From positions 1 to 26,143 of the forward strand of contig JAEOTB010000048.1 of NCBI GenBank assembly GCA_016840065.1: DNA of 26,143 bases, given 5' to 3'. Shown here piece by piece: positions 3,871 to 25,986 of the stretch. Made by a program: the position numbers and the translations under genes. This DNA is from Candidatus Hermodarchaeota archaeon (GTDB taxonomy: Archaea > Asgardarchaeota > Hermodarchaeia > Hermodarchaeales > Hermodarchaeaceae). The notes below the pieces were generated by a model. That model ran no database searches and was not told where the DNA came from. It worked only from the letters and a program-made list of their open reading frames with translations. How positions within the stretch are numbered: the stretch's first letter is position 1; the number at the start of each line of letters is the position of its first letter.

Positions 3871-5037
3871 TCAAGATAAATCTCGAAGGAAAGCGTGAAT
3901 CGCCTCAAGCCTTTTCACAAACTGATCCGAATAGGAGAAGAAAGCGTCCATCCGCTTTAGTTCAGCATCTAAGAAGCGTCTGAGTGGAGGAGAACGGAGG
4001 TAATCCAGTACAAGAAGGATAGACTCGTTGCTGAGTATAGATTGAGCCTGAGTAACATAACTGATCACCTCTGAGAGCTGGTCTAAACTTTGCCCGATGG
4101 CTATCTGTAAAAGGTCACTATCACAGGTGGCTGGGAAGAAGGTAGTTGCTGCTCTTTTCGGATGAGCGAAGAATTCCCGTAACCATAGAATGTGATTCTG
4201 CTCCCTTGGTAGAATCGCTGAAATTAATGTGAATTCATGCATGATAAACAAGGTGTAGATTTTTGCTCGAAGGTCTACTAATTTTTCTATATCTTGGTTC
4301 CATTGCTGAATAGTGTCAAACAGGTTGATTCGTTGATTCAGTTCCTGGGGAGTAAATCCCATTAGTGCATCATCTTCGTCAATGAAGAAATGTTGACTTG
4401 TGCGGATACGCTTGAAATAATCAAAGTACTCAGCGAGGAGTTGTTTAATCCGATGAGGGCTTTTTGAAGAATATGCCTTAACAAGAGTGTTGTTTATACG
4501 TCTGTAGAAGCTCTGACGGAAATCATCAGAAAAACCTTCGACGATAACAAATCCCGTTCTAAGATGTTCACAATCAAGCTCTTTAATTGCCTCAAGGACT
4601 GAAGGGAATTCAAGAACCAATTCCTCAGTCTGGTCAACCAAGGATGTAAACTCTGTGATGGCGTCAGAGACTACCCAATGTAAGTAATCTAGCTCGAATT
4701 CCTGTTCCTCCAAGAAGGGTGTTATCTCCTCTGCAAGAGTTACGACCTTGTGTTGCTGCTCCTTTGTTAGCCGAAGATTCGACGAAAGATGGTTTAGATG
4801 TTTCTGCCATCTCTCTAGTAGTCGGAGGTAGCTATTAACACCTCCAATTACGTTGACAAGGTGCTTGAGCCACCTCGTCTCTATAGCTGGAACCTCTCCG
4901 AGCTTTTCGGTTAACTGTGCCCAAGAGCCCGTTTCCATACCCTCTACCCCTGTTCCAAAACTAAACGCCTTTTGTACAAACTCCCGTAAGAAATCGAAAT
5001 ACTCCGCAACCACTTTGATTACCGAAGAAGGTTCCAA
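3871..5037 (-). CDS. Unknown all-alpha-helical protein, paralog B (388 aa)
   Basis: Long ORF, colinear with paralog A (WVVSDA.TE.T.LVDQTEEL, CEHL, RQSFYR, W.REFF.HP, YLRS.PL). GAGGGG lies upstream of the TTG start. Confidence 0.85.
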   Translation of the reverse strand: MEPSSVIKVVAEYFDFLREFVQKAFSFGTGVEGMETGSWAQLTEKLGEVPAIETRWLKHLVNVIGGVNSYLRLLERWQKHLNHLSSNLRLTKEQQHKVVTLAEEITPFLEEQEFELDYLHWVVSDAITEFTSLVDQTEELVLEFPSVLEAIKELDCEHLRTGFVIVEGFSDDFRQSFYRRINNTLVKAYSSKSPHRIKQLLAEYFDYFKRIRTSQHFFIDEDDALMGFTPQELNQRINLFDTIQQWNQDIEKLVDLRAKIYTLFIMHEFTLISAILPREQNHILWLREFFAHPKRAATTFFPATCDSDLLQIAIGQSLDQLSEVISYVTQAQSILSNESILLVLDYLRSPPLRRFLDAELKRMDAFFSYSDQFVKRLEAIHAFLRDLS

Positions 5038-5235
5038 AGATATCTAAATCCCCTCAGAAAGGTTGTGTAGTAATTTAGTGTTGGATAATTTAAATGTAAT
5101 ATTTTGAAGTATGTGAACTTTGAATTCTGGGGACGAAAAGACTAATCCCAAAACCAGCAACTACACATATTCCCTGCCAAAGGAGGAAGGGCTTTCTTTA
5201 TATTATTTAATAAAAGCTTGAGGTGTATACGCGAC

Positions 5236-5760
5236 ATGAAATTTGAGGACCACATTAAACAATTCCAGCTCCAACGTGGTGCTATCTATTATGCTGGTCG
5301 GCGCCTTGTTATCGTCGAAGCAGAGTATTTGGCTGGGCTACAACAAAAGATGGAAGAAATTATCGGAACTGACGGTACTTTTGCCATAATTCGCGACGCC
5401 TCCTTGGAGGGTGGGCGGCGTATTGCGAAGGCTCTTGTTACGATGTTTAAGGACCTGCTACCAGAGGAACTGATTAAGGCATTCTTCAAACTCCTTGAAT
5501 TTGGGGGTTTTGGTCTCTCGGAGTTAAAGGAGTTCAGTCTAGATCCTTTCAAGATGACTGTAACCTGTGAGAACACCTATCTGGCTGGTACGATAACAGG
5601 TGCCAGTGAGCCCAGGTGTCTTTTTTTCACCATGGCGGTGGCCTTTATCGAGGCACTGCTTAAGGAGAAGGGCTATGACAAGGAATTCACCTATGAAGAA
5701 ACACAATGTGTTGCCAAGGGCGACAATATCTGTGAATCTAAGTTTTCGCAAAATGATTAA
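5236..5760 (+). CDS. V4R domain protein (XylR-N/V4R-like)
   Basis: ATG at 5236 after GAGGTG. Motifs GRRLVIV, GGFG, EPRC and EETQCVAKGDNICE match the V4R ExxCxAxGxxxC signature. Confidence 0.85.
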   Translation: MKFEDHIKQFQLQRGAIYYAGRRLVIVEAEYLAGLQQKMEEIIGTDGTFAIIRDASLEGGRRIAKALVTMFKDLLPEELIKAFFKLLEFGGFGLSELKEFSLDPFKMTVTCENTYLAGTITGASEPRCLFFTMAVAFIEALLKEKGYDKEFTYEETQCVAKGDNICESKFSQND

Positions 5761-5778
5761 GAATCCATTTTCGCCGTT

Positions 5779-6921
5779 TTAGCTTCCCGTTTCCAAGTCA
5801 CGCAGTTTGTATAGGACGATTTCTCTGTGGCCTGCGGTACTCAAGCTCCGTAGGTAGTCAATCATGTCTTGGTCATTCTCTAGACCGTGTCTTTTCAGTG
5901 TCCGAGCTACTAATGCATTGAATTCTTCATCAGAGAGGCTTGCTATCTCTACATCATCTAGCTCATCTAGCTCTTTCTCTTCTTCAGTATAGGGTTCCTC
6001 AATTTCAGGATGTGTCCTCTCAAAAGATGAAGGCTGTTCAGAATCGGAGGTTCTTTCATCGTAGAGGTTCTGTAGGCGATGTATTACCGTCTCTCGGTGA
6101 CCCGCGGCGCTTAGGCTTCTGAGGTAATCATAGATCAGTTCGTCTCTTTTCACACCCAGTTGCTCTAATATCTTGGTTACTCGCTCGTCAAACTCTTCTT
6201 GCGGCAAGCTCGCATCAGATAAGCTCGCAAATAGCAAGACTAAACTGCTTTCTTCATCTGAAACGGCAGGAGTAGGCTCAGGTTGAGGTGTTTCCTGTTG
6301 AGAGGGTGCTGCTGCTAGAGGTATTCTAACAAGAGTTCTTGGTGGGCCTTCGGATTTGATATTTACCTCGACAAGACGCTGGAATATGGCAAGTATGTTC
6401 TGCTCATTGGAGGCGCTGGTTTCAAAATAATATGCACCGAGTTCCTCTGCGAGGGCTTGCCCCTCCTCTTTCCTGATAACCCGCTCATCTTCGATATCCA
6501 CCTTTGTCCCTACAAGAACGGTAGGGATGACACCTTGGGTGCGAAGAATCTCCTTTGACAGATTGGGCACTTTCTCAAAGGAAGCTCGGCTAGTCACACT
6601 AAAGACATGGATTGCGCCAACGCTCCCACGATAATGGGATTCCCGCAGGCTCTGAAACCACGGCTCACATCCCAGCATCCACAACTGGAGGGCGATAACA
6701 TCCTCCCCGTATTCTAACTGGCAAACGCCAAAGGAAGTACCAGTGAGCCGATAATATCCTTCATTGAAAAAGTCGTATCCGATGAAGTTTTGGATGAGGG
6801 TTCTCCTACCCACACCAGTGTCTCCGAGAATAAGCACTTTTAGTACGTAGCTACTTTGTCTTTCTAAACTGCTCTCGGTGCTAGGGGGTTCCTCACGACG
6901 AGATTTCCAAAATCTTCGCAC
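5779..6921 (-). CDS. Rab-like small GTPase with degenerate G1/G3 motifs and a duplicated C-terminal helical domain
   Basis: KVLILGDTGVGRRT (G1-like), LQLWMLG (G3 position), HYRGS.GAI.VFSVTSRASF, VLVGTKVD (G4) and YFETSA (G5). GTG start follows GGTGGGAG. Confidence 0.9.
   Translation of the reverse strand: MRRFWKSRREEPPSTESSLERQSSYVLKVLILGDTGVGRRTLIQNFIGYDFFNEGYYRLTGTSFGVCQLEYGEDVIALQLWMLGCEPWFQSLRESHYRGSVGAIHVFSVTSRASFEKVPNLSKEILRTQGVIPTVLVGTKVDIEDERVIRKEEGQALAEELGAYYFETSASNEQNILAIFQRLVEVNIKSEGPPRTLVRIPLAAAPSQQETPQPEPTPAVSDEESSLVLLFASLSDASLPQEEFDERVTKILEQLGVKRDELIYDYLRSLSAAGHRETVIHRLQNLYDERTSDSEQPSSFERTHPEIEEPYTEEEKELDELDDVEIASLSDEEFNALVARTLKRHGLENDQDMIDYLRSLSTAGHREIVLYKLRDLETGS
5794..6213 (-). 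repeat. Two 50-aa repeats in the GTPase C-terminus (aa 237-286 and 327-376)
   Basis: ASLPQEEF...DYLRSLSAAGHRETVIHRLQNL versus ASLSDEEF...DYLRSLSTAGHREIVLYKLRDL: 25/50 identical, ungapped, 90 aa apart. Confidence 0.95.
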
Positions 6922-7140
6922 AGATTATCTCCCACCGATTGATTTTGTTTCCCAGCTCAATGAGCCCGGGCTTGACGATGTTACAATATCTCCTTGCATC
7001 CTATATTAGTACTGTTCTCTGCAAGACGAAATAGCCAAAAAACAACAGCAACCAAGATTAGCTTGAATTGTAGAGGAAGAATTAGGGCTTTCCATTCATT
7101 TTTTAGCCTTGATTGTAGGAGGGCGAGGGAGTGATTCAAC

Positions 7141-8925
7141 ATGACTGAAAGCAACATGGCGTGGAATCTCGCCCCCCTAGTAGATTCATCAGATCTAGAG
7201 TATCTGAAAACCCAGATGGAACAGCTCATCGCTGAAGCAGAAAAACTGGGCAAAGATTACAGGGACAAGATTACCTCGCTGGACGCAAATGGGCTTCTAA
7301 AACTCCTAAAAAGAATAGAGAAAAACATTCTAGAACGGGAGTCGGTTCTCAGATATGCCCGGCTGAGGTACTCAGCGAACTCACTGGACCCAGAGGCAAA
7401 ACAAATCAATGATATGGGTCGGAGAGCCGAGATGAAGATACAGCAGGAAACAGCTTTTGCCATGATCGAAACAACACAACTACTCACTCAGAAACCAGAG
7501 CTAGTCAACGATCCAATATTATCAGAATATAAGCACATGCTGGAAGTGATTGTCCGTGGAGCACCACATATCCTTTCAGAGAAAGAGGAGCGCTTGATAA
7601 TCCAGAAAGACCGATTCGGCATAGACTCCTTCTACCGTCTGCAACAAGACTGGCTCACAACCCGCACCTTCAAAATCGAAGTAGATGGCAAAATAAGAGA
7701 GATGCCATATGGGGAAATCACAGCTCTCTACGAACATCCCGACCGTCAGCTTCGCAAGAAGTCCAATCGGATTGTCTATTCTCAGTTAGGAGAAGATGAG
7801 ATTCTTTGGGCAAGCGGGTTCCGCGCTATCTTCGGTGACCACCTAGAAACATGTAAACTTCGTAAATGGCCCACACCCTTAACTCAAAGCGTAATCGATA
7901 ATGATATCGATGAACAAACAGTCAAAGCACTGATGGATACGGTAGAGAATCATGTAAAACTCTACCAGCGATATCTCCGCCTCAAAACCCGTATGATGAA
8001 GCTCCCAAAGCTAGCCAACTATGACATCATAGCTCCACTGCCAGACATGCCAGACCGAAGCTTCACATGGGACCAAGCACGAACCCTCGTCATAGAATCA
8101 TACAAATCCTTCGACAAAGAATTCGCCGACATCGTAGAACACATGTTCGAGAAAAGGAGAATTGACGCAGAAGTACGGAAGGGCAAATCCTCAGGCGCTT
8201 GGTGTGCCTCTTGGCTCTCAGGAAACTCTGCCTTTATCCTTATGAGTTTTAATGGTGCCATTGGCGAAGTCTTCACACTCGCCCACGAGAATGGTCACGC
8301 AGTGCACTCAGTCCTCATGTCCACTAAACTGTCACCCTTGAACACAAGCATAAGCTTTGGCGTCGCAGAAACAGCCAGTATCTTCGGCGAACTACTCCTC
8401 GCCGAGAAGCTCATCGCCCAGGCAAAAACAAAAGCAGAAAAACAAGAGGTCCTAACCAGGATACTCGACGAATTCGGCATGACCGTGTTCCAAGTCTCCG
8501 CCAGATTCTTCTTCGAAACATGGCTCTACGAAGCCACAGAACGCGGCGAATTCCTCGACGGCGAAACCATCGCCAAATACTGGACAAAAGCCCGAGACAA
8601 AATGTACGGAGACACTATCGAATGGCTCCCCGAAATGAAATGGGAATGGACCATGAAAGCCCACTACTATATTCCTCGTTTCCGCTATTACAATTGGCCG
8701 TACGTGTACGGTCAGTTATTCGTGTTTGCACTGTATCAGTTGTATAAGGAGCAGGGCAGTGCTTTCGTTCCTAAGCTGAAGGCGCTCCTGTCTTCTGGTA
8801 GTACCAAGTCTCCTCGAGAGATGGGGTTGGAGCTGGGATTAGATATCACGACTCCGGAGTTCTGGACATTGGGTATGAAGATGGCAGAGGAGTTCCTCAA
8901 AGAGTTAGAGTCACTGATGGAATAG
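7141..8925 (+). CDS. pepF: Oligoendopeptidase F (peptidase family M3B)
   Basis: N-terminal WNL, RKGKSSGAWC, TLAHENGHAVH (HEXXH), AETASIFGE, HYY...YYNWPYVYG; 594 aa. Confidence 0.93.
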   Translation: MTESNMAWNLAPLVDSSDLEYLKTQMEQLIAEAEKLGKDYRDKITSLDANGLLKLLKRIEKNILERESVLRYARLRYSANSLDPEAKQINDMGRRAEMKIQQETAFAMIETTQLLTQKPELVNDPILSEYKHMLEVIVRGAPHILSEKEERLIIQKDRFGIDSFYRLQQDWLTTRTFKIEVDGKIREMPYGEITALYEHPDRQLRKKSNRIVYSQLGEDEILWASGFRAIFGDHLETCKLRKWPTPLTQSVIDNDIDEQTVKALMDTVENHVKLYQRYLRLKTRMMKLPKLANYDIIAPLPDMPDRSFTWDQARTLVIESYKSFDKEFADIVEHMFEKRRIDAEVRKGKSSGAWCASWLSGNSAFILMSFNGAIGEVFTLAHENGHAVHSVLMSTKLSPLNTSISFGVAETASIFGELLLAEKLIAQAKTKAEKQEVLTRILDEFGMTVFQVSARFFFETWLYEATERGEFLDGETIAKYWTKARDKMYGDTIEWLPEMKWEWTMKAHYYIPRFRYYNWPYVYGQLFVFALYQLYKEQGSAFVPKLKALLSSGSTKSPREMGLELGLDITTPEFWTLGMKMAEEFLKELESLME

Positions 8926-21720: not shown

Positions 21721-22173
21721 ATGTCTGGAGAACATCTCTATGCACCAATAGCAATACTTGATCAAAGACTTCTTGACCTTGTCCCAAAGGGGGACACAAT
21801 ACTCTACACCTCGAGAGCAACTATCTGGAAGACTGGTTTTGGTGGCGACAAGAAATACGGTCACTTAATCCTAACCGAAAGTGGGATTGCTTTCAGAGCA
21901 TCCAAAGGAGGATACCGAGGAGGCTGGGTCTCCATGGCGAAGGGCTCCATGCAAGACTATGTCCCGTATGAGCTAATCTATGAGTTTCACAATAAGGGGC
22001 GGACAGTGCGTATCAAGCAGACTCTTGCTGAGAACCCTGACAAGAGGCGAGGCTGGAAGTTTCACATCGAGCGTTGCAAGGAGGCAAAGGAGAGCAAAGA
22101 CTCCTGGAAACAGCGAGAGAAACTCTTCGGCGACTTCTTCGAGGATCTTTATCGGTCTGCAATAGGAAAATAA
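21721..22173 (+). CDS. Hypothetical protein, possible PH/GRAM-like fold
   Basis: GGAGGT RBS before ATG. GHLILTESGIAF resembles the GxLxLTxxxIxF strand pair of PH/GRAM domains; several beta strands precede a C-terminal helix. Confidence 0.7.
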   Translation: MSGEHLYAPIAILDQRLLDLVPKGDTILYTSRATIWKTGFGGDKKYGHLILTESGIAFRASKGGYRGGWVSMAKGSMQDYVPYELIYEFHNKGRTVRIKQTLAENPDKRRGWKFHIERCKEAKESKDSWKQREKLFGDFFEDLYRSAIGK

Positions 22174-22256: not shown

Positions 22257-22904
22257 TCAACCAAGCCTGTATTCTTTTCCAGGTTCCAGTATTTGGACAT
22301 GAATATCAGGGGCAACCTCTAGCCTACGTCGGAAGACCTCAGGGTTTTTGTCCCATATATGCATGGGAATTACTATCCTTGGCTTGATGACAAGAGCAGC
22401 TTCTGCTCCATCAACGTCGTCTAGGGTGTAGGTTCCACCTGTGGGTAGCAGCGCAACATCCACCTTTCCGAGTTTTTCCATTTCAGGTATGAGTCCAGTG
22501 TCACCAGCATGATAGATAGTCTGCCCCTCCACGGTCACCAAATAGCCTACGCCAAATCCCTTAGGGTGGAACGGTTTCCCGGGTGAACGGAACCGTTTCA
22601 CGTTGTAGGCCTCCACGGCCTTGACGTGTATGCCTTCTAGGTCAATCTCCTCGCCTGCCAAAAGGGATTTCACTTCGCCCCCTATCTTTTCAACACAATC
22701 TGCAGGGGCTATGATGATGGTAGAGTCTTGGCGAACCTCTTTGATCTTCGCGGGGTCACAATGATCGTAGTGAGAGTGGGTGACGAGAATCACGTCAGCT
22801 GGTTCGGTTGGTTTTGAACTCTTCTCTAAATCGATGTATATAACCATCTCTTGGGCGTTTATCTGAAAAGCAGCATGTCCAAGCCATTTGATTACAACAG
22901 TCAT
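22257..22904 (-). CDS. Metallo-beta-lactamase-fold hydrolase
   Basis: KWLGHAAF, IYID, THSHYDH (HxHxDH), IYHAGDT, DVALLP.GG and IPMH. Confidence 0.92.
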   Translation of the reverse strand: MTVVIKWLGHAAFQINAQEMVIYIDLEKSSKPTEPADVILVTHSHYDHCDPAKIKEVRQDSTIIIAPADCVEKIGGEVKSLLAGEEIDLEGIHVKAVEAYNVKRFRSPGKPFHPKGFGVGYLVTVEGQTIYHAGDTGLIPEMEKLGKVDVALLPTGGTYTLDDVDGAEAALVIKPRIVIPMHIWDKNPEVFRRRLEVAPDIHVQILEPGKEYRLG

Positions 22905-22956: not shown

Positions 22957-23073
22957 TTACTTCATCACATTTGCCCTGTGGCATTGACAACAGTAGCCTC
23001 TTTTCCCTTTCTTTTGTTCGATCAGACATCTCTTACATTCAGTGTGCCTACAATAGCTGCATTTACGAGCCAT
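22957..23073 (-). CDS. Cys/His-rich microprotein 2 (38 aa)
   Basis: Hand translation: MARKCSYCRHTECKRCLIEQKKGKRGYCCQCHRANVMK*. Same motif spacing as the adjacent 55-aa ORF. TTATAA lies upstream at 23111-23116. Confidence 0.85.
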   Translation of the reverse strand: MARKCSYCRHTECKRCLIEQKKGKRGYCCQCHRANVMK

Positions 23074-23143
23074 AATCCGTCACGTCTGTGTATTATTCTT
23101 CCTTTCTCAGTTATAATAATTCCTAAGTTCTGAATGTCGAAGT

Positions 23144-23311
23144 TCAGCGCTTTGCGCGTTTCCTTGGCTTCTTCTTAAAACCTAGTTGATGGCATCGGCA
23201 GCAGAAGCCGGTTCCTCCTCTAACCTCGCCCGCCCGGCAATGGTTACAGCGGGTGTGACCACACACACTGCATGTCTTCAACCGACTCTTCGATCTTGAC
23301 TCAAATGTCAT
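23144..23311 (-). CDS. Cys/His-rich microprotein 1 (55 aa) with a basic tail
   Basis: Hand translation: MTFESRSKSRLKTCSVCGHTRCNHCRAGEVRGGTGFCCRCHQLGFKKKPRKRAKR*. TATA-like CTATATAG at 23331-23338, about 20-27 nt upstream of the ATG. An alternative TTG start is at 23281. Confidence 0.85.
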   Translation of the reverse strand: MTFESRSKSRLKTCSVCGHTRCNHCRAGEVRGGTGFCCRCHQLGFKKKPRKRAKR

Positions 23312-23398
23312 GACTAGCCATCCTAGATTTCTATATAGATTATTTAGTATTTTGAACTTAAAACCGCAGCGATTCGGGAAAACTAAGGGATTACCTAG

Positions 23399-23866
23399 TT
23401 AGAGCTTCGACAGTTCTTCCTCAATAAAACCAAGATGCTGTTTGAGTTGGTCTCGCATTCTTATTAGTACAGTCTTCCGTTCCTCAAGGGGTAGGTTTTC
23501 TAGGATTATTTCAGAAAAGTGCATCATCGGATTTGGCATTTGATCGGAAATGATCAGGTTTGAAAACAGTCTAGCAAATTTACCTAGTTCTTCCTTTGCG
23601 TGCCTCTTCCCCTTCCTGGTAATAGTGTAAATTGTCCGTTCCACTTCGCCCTTGAAGTCTTTCTCGCTAGTAATATACTCGTCCTCTTCAAGGGATTCGA
23701 GCATCTTGTAGAGCATGGAGTGGGAGGGGGTCCATCTGCCCTGTGTCATCTGTTCGATTCTTTTCATGATTTCGTAGCCGTGCATTGGTTCATCACGGAG
23801 TAGACGAAGAGTAAAGACATGGAGGAGGAATCCTTTGGGTCGACGGAAGAAGGAGGGTGATTTCAT
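23399..23866 (-). CDS. PadR-family transcriptional regulator
   Basis: LRLL...PMHGYEIMK.I...W.PS.SMLY..L..LE...YI and RTIYTITRKGK winged helix; AAGGA upstream. Confidence 0.93.
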   Translation of the reverse strand: MKSPSFFRRPKGFLLHVFTLRLLRDEPMHGYEIMKRIEQMTQGRWTPSHSMLYKMLESLEEDEYITSEKDFKGEVERTIYTITRKGKRHAKEELGKFARLFSNLIISDQMPNPMMHFSEIILENLPLEERKTVLIRMRDQLKQHLGFIEEELSKL

Positions 23867-23959
23867 TGGTACTAATTCCTTCTAAACACTTATATATCTA
23901 TTTTTGTTTCATGTCAATAAAATACATAAAATGCACCTATCCCATAGAAGGTAATCCAA

Positions 23960-24706
23960 ATGAGTAGTAGCCGGTCACAAGCGCGTACACGCACTTCAAA
24001 ACCTAAGCTTACATTTCTGGTCGAAACAGAAAACCTTCACCGCACTTACACCATGGGCAAGGTTGAGCTACATGCGCTTCGTGGTGTTGACCTGCAGGTT
24101 GAACCCGGTGAATTCGTGGTTATCCTCGGTGTCTCTGGGAGCGGGAAATCGACACTCCTCCATCTCTTAGGAGGCCTCGACCGCCCCACCCAAGGCAAAG
24201 TCATCATTGAAGGCGAAGACCTCTCAGAATTAAGTGACAATCAGCTCGCAGAGGTACGCCTCCAGAAAGTAGGTTTTGTATTCCAATTCTTCAATCTCAT
24301 GCCACAGCTTTCAGCTCAAGCTAACGTAGAACTACCGCTCTTCTTAGCAGACGTTCCCGCAAAGGAGGCTCAAACACGAGCCACCGAACTCCTCACCCTG
24401 GTAGGACTTTCTGAGCGACGCGAACACCGTCCAACAGAGCTAAGCGGTGGCGAGCAGCAGCGAGTAGCGATAGCCCGGGCCTTGGCAAACCAACCACAGA
24501 TTGTGTTAGCGGACGAACCCACAGGCAACCTAGATACAAAGACTGGTGCAGAAATCATCCGTTTACTGAAAAAGGTAAACCAAGACCAAAAACAGACAGT
24601 TATCGTTGTATGTCATGACCGAAGATTAACAGAGGTAGCAGATAGAGTGATTGAAATGAGAGACGGTCAATTCATCAGTGAAAAACCTGGAGGTGCCAAA
24701 ACATGA
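23960..24706 (+). CDS. ABC transporter ATP-binding protein, LolD/MacB type
   Basis: GVSGSGKS, VGFVFQFFNL, LSGGEQQRVAIARAL and LADEPTGNLD. Confidence 0.95.
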   Translation: MSSSRSQARTRTSKPKLTFLVETENLHRTYTMGKVELHALRGVDLQVEPGEFVVILGVSGSGKSTLLHLLGGLDRPTQGKVIIEGEDLSELSDNQLAEVRLQKVGFVFQFFNLMPQLSAQANVELPLFLADVPAKEAQTRATELLTLVGLSERREHRPTELSGGEQQRVAIARALANQPQIVLADEPTGNLDTKTGAEIIRLLKKVNQDQKQTVIVVCHDRRLTEVADRVIEMRDGQFISEKPGGAKT

Positions 24707-25986
24707 AGGTGCGACGAATTCTTGGATTGGCATTAACAAACATGAGACGTCGGAAGCTCCGCACCGGCCTTACCGCCTTAGGTATCATCATCGGAATCCT
24801 AGCGGTAGTCTCTATCTCAGCACTGAGCGGCGGCTTCGAGGTAGAAATGAGAGGGCAAATCGCCGAGAGCCTCGAAACCGATATTCTAATCGTTATGCCC
24901 GGCGGCGGAATAATGGGTGGAGGAGGACTAACTTATCTTTCAGAAAATGAATCTGAATACATTGCAACCAATATCACTGGAGTTGTAGCCGTTTTACCAT
25001 ACATGCAGCAGGGCGCAACCATCCACCTTGGTGACAACGAAACACTGGACACTCTGCTCACTGGACTCAACTTCACCCAGCTCTCGCAAGTCTATGGGGA
25101 TCGAGTGGAGTTCGCAGAAGGCGGAGCACCAGACCCACTAATCAACAACACATGCGTCCTAGGCTATCTGGAGGACCCAATAGCAGCGGTGGGCGACAAC
25201 ATAACAGTGGAATTCCTCATCCGGATTCCCGTTTGGCCATTCTTTAATGCGAAGAATTTCACCTTCACAGTAAGCGGCTTATTCGAAGAAGCAGGAACAT
25301 CTGGAGTAATGTCCTTTGACCGCGGATTATTCATTCCGCTAAACACCTCCAAGACGCTCTTCGATTCGGAAGAGATATCCACTATCATCGTCAAGATAGC
25401 TGACCCCGACCAGGCAGAAACAATCGCAGATGAAATCCGCGACTTCTACGAGGACCAGGCAATGGTGATAGTACCCACTTCTATCATTGAAATGGTGTCC
25501 ACATTGTTCAATCTGATGGAGGTATTCCTACTCGGAATAGCCTCAATCGCAATGCTAGTTGCAGGAATCAGCATATTGAACATAATGCTAGTAACAGTCA
25601 TGGAACGTACTCGGGAGATTGGTGTTATGAAAGCGTTGGGTGCAAAGGGTCGCACGATTCTTAGTCAGTTCCTCACCGAGGCAGCTCTTCTAGGTTTTAT
25701 CGGCGCCATCGTAGGCATTATCCTCGGTTACGGGCTAGCCTATGTGATGGGGATGCTTCTGCCGGTTATGTTCTCCGGACTAAGTTCCTCCATGGGAGAC
25801 CAATTTGGCGGTATGGGTTCCCAGAATATGGGGCAATTTAGCTCATTCACAATGACCCCGGTCCTTACCTTGGACACTATCATTATAGCGTTCACCTTCT
25901 CAATCCTGATAAGCGTGATCTTCGCCCTGTATCCGGCCCGGAAAGCCGCCAAACTCGATCCAGTGAAAGCACTCCGATACGAATAA
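24703..25986 (+). CDS. ABC transporter permease, MacB/FtsX type
   Basis: RT.LTALGIIIG, a large extracytoplasmic loop, NIMLVTVMERTREIGVMKALGA and YPARKAAKLDPVKALRYE; ATGA overlap with the ATPase. Confidence 0.95.
   Translation: MKVRRILGLALTNMRRRKLRTGLTALGIIIGILAVVSISALSGGFEVEMRGQIAESLETDILIVMPGGGIMGGGGLTYLSENESEYIATNITGVVAVLPYMQQGATIHLGDNETLDTLLTGLNFTQLSQVYGDRVEFAEGGAPDPLINNTCVLGYLEDPIAAVGDNITVEFLIRIPVWPFFNAKNFTFTVSGLFEEAGTSGVMSFDRGLFIPLNTSKTLFDSEEISTIIVKIADPDQAETIADEIRDFYEDQAMVIVPTSIIEMVSTLFNLMEVFLLGIASIAMLVAGISILNIMLVTVMERTREIGVMKALGAKGRTILSQFLTEAALLGFIGAIVGIILGYGLAYVMGMLLPVMFSGLSSSMGDQFGGMGSQNMGQFSSFTMTPVLTLDTIIIAFTFSILISVIFALYPARKAAKLDPVKALRYE

Follow-up and report, generated by a model that had tools for sequence, protein, structure and literature searches.

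A stretch of 26,143 nt from a Candidatus Hermodarchaeota archaeon (contig JAEOTB010000048.1 of assembly GCA_016840065.1; hereafter the window) contains a space of 494 nt between the genes for a metallo-beta-lactamase (MBL)-fold hydrolase and a PadR-family regulator, and it may be asked whether this space encodes proteins and, if so, of which kind. An earlier note on the same DNA had placed there two minus-strand open reading frames (ORFs) shorter than 60 aa. Both were found, entirely inside the space: gene A (23144..23311, minus strand) codes for 55 aa and gene B (22957..23073, minus strand) for 38 aa, each from an ATG start, and the peptides proposed earlier are correct, including the basic tail of A (KKKPRKRAKR). 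A consists of a disordered N-terminus, a finger core from Cys14 to Cys40 and a C-terminal tail rich in Lys/Arg; B contains 11 Lys/Arg versus 2 Glu. Cys accounts for 18% of the residues, with His in addition, and no signal or leader peptide is found on either protein. The finger regions of A and B align by BLASTP with 14/34 identities and 0 gaps (E 7e-9), in agreement with the gap-free Cys/His pattern that had been noticed in both; the genes are indeed unannotated, as neither exact protein occurs in a public collection of 15 billion sequences. It is close to certain that A and B are selected protein genes, which bear metal ligands and belong to a family without a name.

The first line of evidence comes from the genome of the window (G000, 2.59 Mb), where a scan of all six frames with the pattern C-x2-C-x-H-x2-C-x2-C-x(8-14)-C-C-x-C returned 3 matches versus the 2e-5 expected from residue frequencies. 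Every match is a family member: A, B and a third copy, C, located between two TPR-like genes on contig C116 (L003 1498..1644, minus strand). Copies are also present in three sister genomes of the same genus: G001 carries A, while A, B and C are all found in G002 (A partial) and G003. The gene order PadR, A, B, MBL is conserved wherever the contigs of the sister genomes reach, and the order B then MBL is shared by G000, G002 and G003. Synonymous divergence (dS) extends from 0.9 to values that cannot be computed for all three paralogue groups, i.e. it is at or near saturation; nonsynonymous divergence (dN) is 0.04-0.28, and dN/dS is 0.04-0.19 wherever the ratio can be formed, which bears out the proposal of selection acting on the protein. 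The start codon of A is ATG, GTG or TTG at one aligned codon in three genomes, with a Shine-Dalgarno (SD)-like GGAGG or AGGTG ahead of it. Moreover, orthologous loci show no frameshifts, their Cys residues are retained and neither ORF is a fragment of a longer gene, three points on which the earlier note had let its proposal depend.

An alignment of 19 members reveals exactly eight invariant columns, which correspond to C5, C8, H10, C13, C16, C28, C29 and C31 in the numbering of B and define the family signature C-x2-C-x-H-x2-C-x2-C-x(8-13)-C-C-x-C, with 7 Cys and 1 His. The loop between C16 and C28 differs in length by -3 to +2 residues among the members, leaving the ligands unaffected. Seven Cys and two His had been proposed as ligands from A and B; the seven Cys and one His stand family-wide, but the second His, following the CCxC element (His32), is invariant in the B type only; A of G003, every C copy, the sister-genus copies and P0007, a fused form described below, have another residue there. 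The eight invariant ligands are sufficient for two tetrahedral metal sites. Conservation in the B type extends well beyond them: the residues invariant in this type are C5, S6, Y7, C8, H10, C13, C16, Y27, C28, C29, C31, H32, R33 and M37, and the non-ligand positions S6, Y7, E19, Q20, K24, G26, Y27, Q30, R33, V36 and M37 are conserved as strongly as the ligands. Across hosts whose genomic GC content is 29-69%, the B-type gene is 75-88% identical at codon positions 1 and 2 and 29-53% identical at position 3, with a GC content at third positions (GC3) of 0.13-0.79. The retention of the first two positions together with the randomisation of the third indicates that the protein is under very strong constraint and that the gene has resided in each host long enough to acquire its composition.

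A six-frame profile search of 400 genomes from the phylum detected the family in 11: 4/4 of the window's genus, 3/15 of its sister genus and four more, which are spread over three further families. When each of 185,579 species was represented by a single genome, a pattern scan identified 20 loci, each having an ATG with AAGGAG or GGAGG ahead. Archaeal hosts among them are Hermodarchaeota (G002 and G003), Promethearchaeota, Helarchaeota and a Bathyarchaeia metagenome-assembled genome (MAG), and the bacterial ones are several Myxococcota/"Deltaproteobacteria" MAGs and Spirochaetota/Leptospirales MAGs. Thus, the pattern search that had been suggested for Asgard and other archaea did recover further members, but the family is not specific to Asgard archaea, as its range reaches Myxococcota and Spirochaetota. 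According to the sample names, all hosts appear to be uncultured and known from metagenome bins; we take them to be dwellers of anoxic sediments. The distant archaeal copies, from the three further families, are all of the B type and 37-38 aa long. B of the window is identical to a deltaproteobacterial copy at 34/38 positions and to other B-type copies at 29-32/38, and its identity to the Loki/Hel Asgard, the Bathyarchaeia MAG, one Myxococcota order and the Spirochaetota copies is 76-89%.

Within the Myxococcota, the family is carried by 9/23 genomes of one order. It is rare also in large collections, with 7 matches among 1.84 billion cluster representatives, 14 clusters out of 5.8 billion and 10 loci in 241 million metagenome records, and a scan of IMG/VR viral contigs gave zero relatives. 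Family members are annotated in their sources as "hypothetical protein" in every instance; a word-index protein search with A alone provided no candidates, and a full-text literature search with the motif strings found no paper. A dedicated search for fused or longer versions found none; the only fused form encountered, P0007 (L046 396-1442), came from an exhaustive search for the family and is a protein of 348 aa on a 1.7-kb contig of GCA_029935835.1, with the finger at residues 141-177 and other regions that match no family. Weak tblastn matches in frames of 175-182 aa from the sister genus were traced to a zinc ribbon in MBF1-like proteins, which are unrelated.

The phylogenetic tree places A together with the one copy present in the sister genus (support 92/88). 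A, C and the sister-genus copy lie on long branches, while the branches of the B type are short and their order is not resolved; this difference marks B as the slowly evolving, ancestral form. The tandem A-B pair and C are a genus-level expansion, in Hermodarchaeota, of a gene that is normally single-copy. B would represent the constrained ancestral form common to other archaea and to bacteria, and A and C faster-evolving duplicates, the former having probably gained its disordered Lys/Arg tail. The divergence of A and C, with the second His lost in paralogues and the tail added to A, presumably reflects modified targets. A copy in a genome of the sister genus (G009; L009 1510-1686, plus strand) carries Arg at Cys13 and Cys at Tyr27, with a dN/dS of ~1 versus its closest relative; this copy is probably decaying, or possibly represents a ligand swap.

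No described family accounts for these proteins, as had been supposed: none of the Pfam, NCBIfam, PHROG and PADLOC models matched A, B, C or the bacterial members at or near its threshold. The AlphaFold2 (AF2) model of B, obtained with the family alignment, has a pLDDT of 87.2 and is compact; short beta bridges are present, and a helix spans residues 14-22, beginning at the C13-x2-C16 pair. In the model of A, the core shows the same pattern with a pLDDT of 75-79, whereas low values are obtained for residues 1-8 and for the tail. A prediction of the A+B heterodimer with four Zn gave a score of 0.00, i.e. no answer, and was used as evidence in neither direction. Foldseek versus the PDB yielded no match at E 0.001 or better; its top rows are nearly all RING/U-box domains (E 0.7-3, TMq 0.4-0.48). 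VIA-align listed a RING-type entry (Z 2.4, root-mean-square deviation 3.1 over 37 residues), the Sec23 zinc finger (Z 2.2) and rubredoxin (Z 2.1), and its wide search, with a second look, gave only Z values of 2.0-2.4. The fold neighbours in the ESM Atlas are RING domains and LapB-type rubredoxin ribbons (TM ~0.5), and its feature search returned only unnamed clusters with scores of 0.90 or lower. In a profile search of the PDB, the weak matches were the RING finger of MAT1 (E 0.004), the RING domains of RNF168 and Hakai (~0.2) and the ribosomal protein eL37 (0.12-0.9). FYVE_2 appeared below threshold in 8/19 members (E 0.036-0.58, 10.8-14.3 bits versus a cut-off of 27.2). In these profiles and predicted models, the neighbours suggest a weak but consistent picture, being all metal fingers.

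The MAT1 match, the RING domains at the top of the Foldseek rows and the sub-threshold FYVE_2 matches sustain the likeness, pointed out earlier, to the second part of a RING finger and to the FYVE cross-brace. As in RING domains, eight Cys/His ligands are available, the number needed for two metals; the stretch C-x-H-x2-C-x2-C-x11-C-x2-C reproduces RING ligands 3-8, and the helix starts at the C-x2-C that matches ligands 5 and 6. Conversely, RING ligands 2 and 3 are separated by a loop of 9-39 residues that the microproteins lack, so that the first CxxC abuts C-x-H, and eight ligands are reached through the additional Cys in the CC pair. The RING spacing C-x2-C-x(9-39)-C-x(1-3)-H-x(2-3)-C-x2-C-x(4-48)-C-x2-C does not describe the microproteins, where one Cys would have to serve as ligands 2 and 3 at once. 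The core has ~27 residues versus 40-60 in RING, B-box, FYVE and PHD domains. No RING model of Pfam matches A or B at E values up to 10, and single members of the 19 match zf-RING_5 (E 0.11, 1/19) and IBR (E 0.012, 1/19). The basic lipid-binding motif of FYVE domains, R(R/K)HHCR, is absent from the family alignment and the FYVE threshold is not reached. To our knowledge, no link of the family to E2 enzymes, ubiquitin or lipids exists.

Binuclear RING-like treble clefs, B-boxes included, are known in prokaryotes (PMC4506424). The genome of the window itself contains an expanded family of B-box-like finger proteins, with at least nine paralogues of 270-390 aa, partly in tandem arrays (C48:21286-23979, C89:7085-9897, C12:3000-7755 and C37:6487-6663; L025-L028), in which an N-terminal finger, sub-threshold for zf-B_box, is followed by a Pro-rich linker; these fingers belong to membrane proteins, and a stand-alone version of 55 aa is also present. 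They share with the microproteins the arrangement C-x-S-C-G-x3-C-x2-C ... [YH]-C-x2-C, with similar spacing, and both kinds are abundant in this genome; however, they begin with one more pair, C-x2-H, that is absent from the microproteins, and lack both the His10 and the CC pair of the latter. Kinship between the two was not established (hhalign probability 5%, E 0.007). The zf-B_box model is not among the Pfam matches of the microproteins, in which the first CxxC is not preceded by any ligand pair.

Small zinc-finger proteins are known in haloarchaea, namely the C(P)XCG proteins of Haloferax volcanii and Brz of Halobacterium, many of which are reported to bind zinc and to have regulatory or stress phenotypes (PMC10716476, PMC11241148, PMC2253796). 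Like the proteins studied here, they are stand-alone archaeal polypeptides of <70 aa with CxxC knuckles, but they use two C(P)XCG motifs for one zinc, whereas eight ligands are invariant in the present family. The microproteins are below the 70-aa limit in length, but CPxCG is absent from the family alignment, and CSxCG occurs once, in some members only. The Asgard/Bathyarchaeia/Myxococcota/Spirochaetota range and the far higher sequence conservation further distinguish the microproteins from the haloarchaeal ones. As regards the zinc-ribbon protein eL37, H-x2-C-x2-C-x11-[YV]-C-x2-C can be aligned gap-free and both proteins are small and very basic; however, eL37 has four Cys for one zinc and is universal in archaea, unlike a family limited to 11/400 Asgard genomes, and the E values of the profile match given above are not significant.

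On balance, these proteins are probably cytoplasmic two-zinc mini-fingers, acting as adaptors on an acidic and highly conserved nucleic acid or protein. The core of ~27 residues, made by three CxxC knuckles (C5/C8, C13/C16 and C28/C31) together with His10 and Cys29, would fold round two tetrahedral metal ions, which the ligand set suggests to be Zn(II), giving a compact binuclear cross-braced finger of the RING, B-box or treble-clef kind. One site could be formed by two of the knuckles, and the other by the remaining knuckle together with His10 and Cys29; one ligand pair would be supplied by the helix starting at the third Cys, and the neighbouring Cys28 and Cys29 probably face different metals. 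With respect to a RING finger, the long first loop would have been deleted, and the second Cys in the CC pair would bring the number of ligands back to eight. The absence of a signal or leader peptide and the strong basicity favour a cytoplasmic adaptor on an acidic partner, and the basic protein could clamp onto a conserved acidic macromolecule, either RNA/DNA or protein. The genomic context in other Asgard lineages is compatible with such a role. There, the B-type gene stands alone amid unrelated genes, with synteny only between close relatives, and its neighbours include an RNA 2'-phosphotransferase, DNA polymerase B, a geranylgeranyl reductase, an RNA polymerase subunit and a histidine kinase; at the archaeal loci outside the genus no neighbour is conserved and an MBL gene is not adjacent. 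A stand-alone gene in such varied contexts fits an autonomous small factor.

Several observations weigh against this reading. No structural or profile match is significant, all Z values being <2.5 and the hhalign probability that already mentioned. The ligand pattern fits iron or iron-sulfur chemistry as well, both Rieske boxes being present in the B type. In bacteria, the convergent ABC exporter and the TPR protein that accompany the gene could suggest a transport-related or exported role rather than the binding of nucleic acids. Finally, the patchy spread (11/400 Asgard genomes) speaks against a partner belonging to core housekeeping functions. A more far-reaching version of the mini-finger reading may be put forward tentatively, as a possibility that we hold with considerable reserve: the B type would be a cross-domain accessory subunit or cofactor, the smallest binuclear cross-brace finger known, docking onto a universally conserved machine such as the ribosome, RNA polymerase or an anaerobic redox enzyme, anciently exchanged among Asgard archaea, Bathyarchaeia, Myxococcota and Spirochaetota and later expanded into three paralogues in Hermodarchaeota.

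Among the alternatives, the one that best survives, though it is unlikely, is a redox-active iron protein, whose ligands would bind iron, either as a rubredoxin- or desulforedoxin-like Fe(Cys)4 centre or in an Fe-S cluster, e.g. a [2Fe-2S] of the Rieske type at Cys8/His10 and Cys29/His32 of the B type; the protein would then be dedicated to a conserved anaerobic enzyme, as its electron carrier or as a factor in its maturation. Both Rieske boxes, I (C-x-H-x2-C) and II (C-x-C-H), can be recognised in B-type members, including the extra Cys of each box, and Rieske_proteo is the sole NCBIfam match, in 4/5 members tested; however, its E values of 0.25-0.9 (9.6-11.3 bits versus a cut-off of 97.4) are at chance level. 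The separation between His and Cys is 18 residues in the microproteins, and usually 15-17 in Rieske proteins. Furthermore, three more Cys are invariant, His32 is lost in A of G003, in the C and D paralogues and in P0007 while the other eight ligands are kept, and 38 aa cannot form the Rieske beta-sandwich of 100 aa or more; membership in this family was rejected on these grounds. As for the Fe(Cys)4 form, an adjacent CC pair ligates iron in desulforedoxin, and rubredoxin or rubredoxin-type ribbons appear in the VIA-align and Atlas lists. A redox function would also suit the hosts, if these presumed dwellers of anoxic sediments are correctly regarded as such, and the extreme conservation of the whole surface would be appropriate for docking to a redox partner. 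Conversely, small electron carriers are usually acidic whereas the microprotein is strongly basic, and no redox enzyme gene occurs among its conserved neighbours.

A metal buffer or chaperone, similar to metallothioneins or metallochaperones, that stores Zn or Cu or hands it over, and which within the genus could serve the neighbouring MBL-fold zinc enzyme, appears distinctly improbable. The high share of Cys, plus His, is in its favour, and so is the fact that B lies, in three genomes of this genus, directly upstream of the gene for a metal-dependent hydrolase with the MBL fold. In one Spirochaetota genome (L065 800-3909), the microprotein gene directly follows, on the same strand, an ABC-3 (Zn/Mn-type) permease gene, which would also agree with metal handling; however, both the MBL and the ABC-3 neighbours are lineage-specific. 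Metallothioneins tolerate variation and are devoid of aromatic residues, whereas the B type has two invariant Tyr, at positions 7 and 27, and the 11 non-ligand residues listed above are conserved like ligands. No Pfam metallothionein matches the family, including that of bacterial SmtA/BmtA (PF02069).

Still less probable, to the point of being hard to sustain, is an exported peptide, leaderless, cationic and Cys-rich, with a bacteriocin- or signal-like role and pumped by an adjacent ABC transporter. The argument for it lies mainly in the bacterial loci, where the 38-aa gene of both Myxococcota and Spirochaetota faces, in convergent orientation, the gene of an orthologous 630-aa ABC exporter, which is preceded by that of a TPR protein (about 4120-7800 in each of L048, L050, L052, L055, L058, L059, L064 and L065). 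The exporter is 37-52% identical over its full length across phyla, and this ABC exporter/TPR module is the only recurrent cross-phylum neighbour of the 38-aa gene; in the window, too, a MacB-type ABC pair is found two genes off. However, the convergent exporter is not co-transcribed with the microprotein gene and has no C39 peptidase domain, just as the peptide has no leader; an orthologue of the exporter membrane domain was not found in G000, and the other archaeal loci have no transporter nearby. Moreover, secreted antimicrobial peptides evolve fast, unlike a microprotein that is ~80% identical across domains, and an invariant His amid Cys suggests a metal site instead of disulfides.

Practically nothing is left of the last alternative, in which A and B arose by chance or are what remains of a larger, decayed gene, the region being a non-coding spacer or a regulatory RNA: the shortness of both frames and the absence of the exact proteins from public collections could speak for it, but at the sequence level it is already refuted by the comparative data, namely the purifying selection measured on the A and B groups, the motif expectation of 2e-5 per genome, intact stand-alone orthologues with SD sites at 30+ loci in two domains, the failure to find longer forms in the dedicated search and the lack of any Rfam match.

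What is new is an unnamed family of micro-proteins, probably of the binuclear zinc-finger type, which stands out by its minimal length, by a signature of exactly eight ligands and by being conserved in two domains. Proteins of this size systematically escape annotation, and public gene sets contain neither A nor B. A protein of 38 aa nearly fixed across archaea and bacteria that are 40 GC points apart, with synonymous sites scrambled, is unusual, as such a constraint normally marks components of the core machinery. Extreme constraint on a gene that is so rare and patchy suggests that its partner fits tightly and that genes passed long ago between the two domains among microbes of sediments, with Asgard archaea taking part. 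With such a pattern of ligands, the protein would be the most compact two-metal finger of the RING/B-box class; if so, it would provide a minimal scaffold for studying the folding and evolution of binuclear fingers, in a peptide small enough for chemical synthesis.

The surroundings of the two genes complete the description of the locus. The MBL-fold hydrolase gene (22257..22904, minus strand; Pfam Lactamase_B_3, E 1e-31) lies 52 nt downstream of B, and the PadR-family regulator gene (23399..23866, minus strand; Pfam PadR, E 5e-19) is upstream of A. The TATA-like elements that had been assigned to each gene correspond to AT-rich stretches recognisable in the sequence. In the region upstream of A (23312..23398, minus strand), the TATA-like CTATATAG at 23339-23332, which is AT-rich and placed 21-28 nt ahead of the ATG, is accompanied by an SD-like AGGATGG, and a comparable AT-rich block with GGAGGT precedes the A orthologue of G003. 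The A-B spacer of 70 nt (23074..23143, minus strand) contains AT-rich, TATA-like stretches at 23120-23111 (ATTATTATAA) and 23100-23091, and can be considered a putative own promoter of B. An Rfam search of the window, A-B spacer included, matched no RNA family, and a scan for intrinsic terminators and sigma-70 sites found no terminator-like site in the spacer, although its bacterial model is uninformative for an archaeon.

On the other side of the locus (window positions 23399-25986), the PadR gene is divergent from the MacB-type ABC pair, formed by an ATPase (23960-24706) and an FtsX-type permease (24703-25986), both on the plus strand; the order ABC, PadR, A is also present in G001. PadR and the MacB-type pair are likely a regulator-efflux unit, independent of the microproteins. 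Beyond the MBL gene, positions 21721-22173 (plus strand) encode a 150-aa protein with no assigned family, which is kept beside the MBL gene in G002 and G003.

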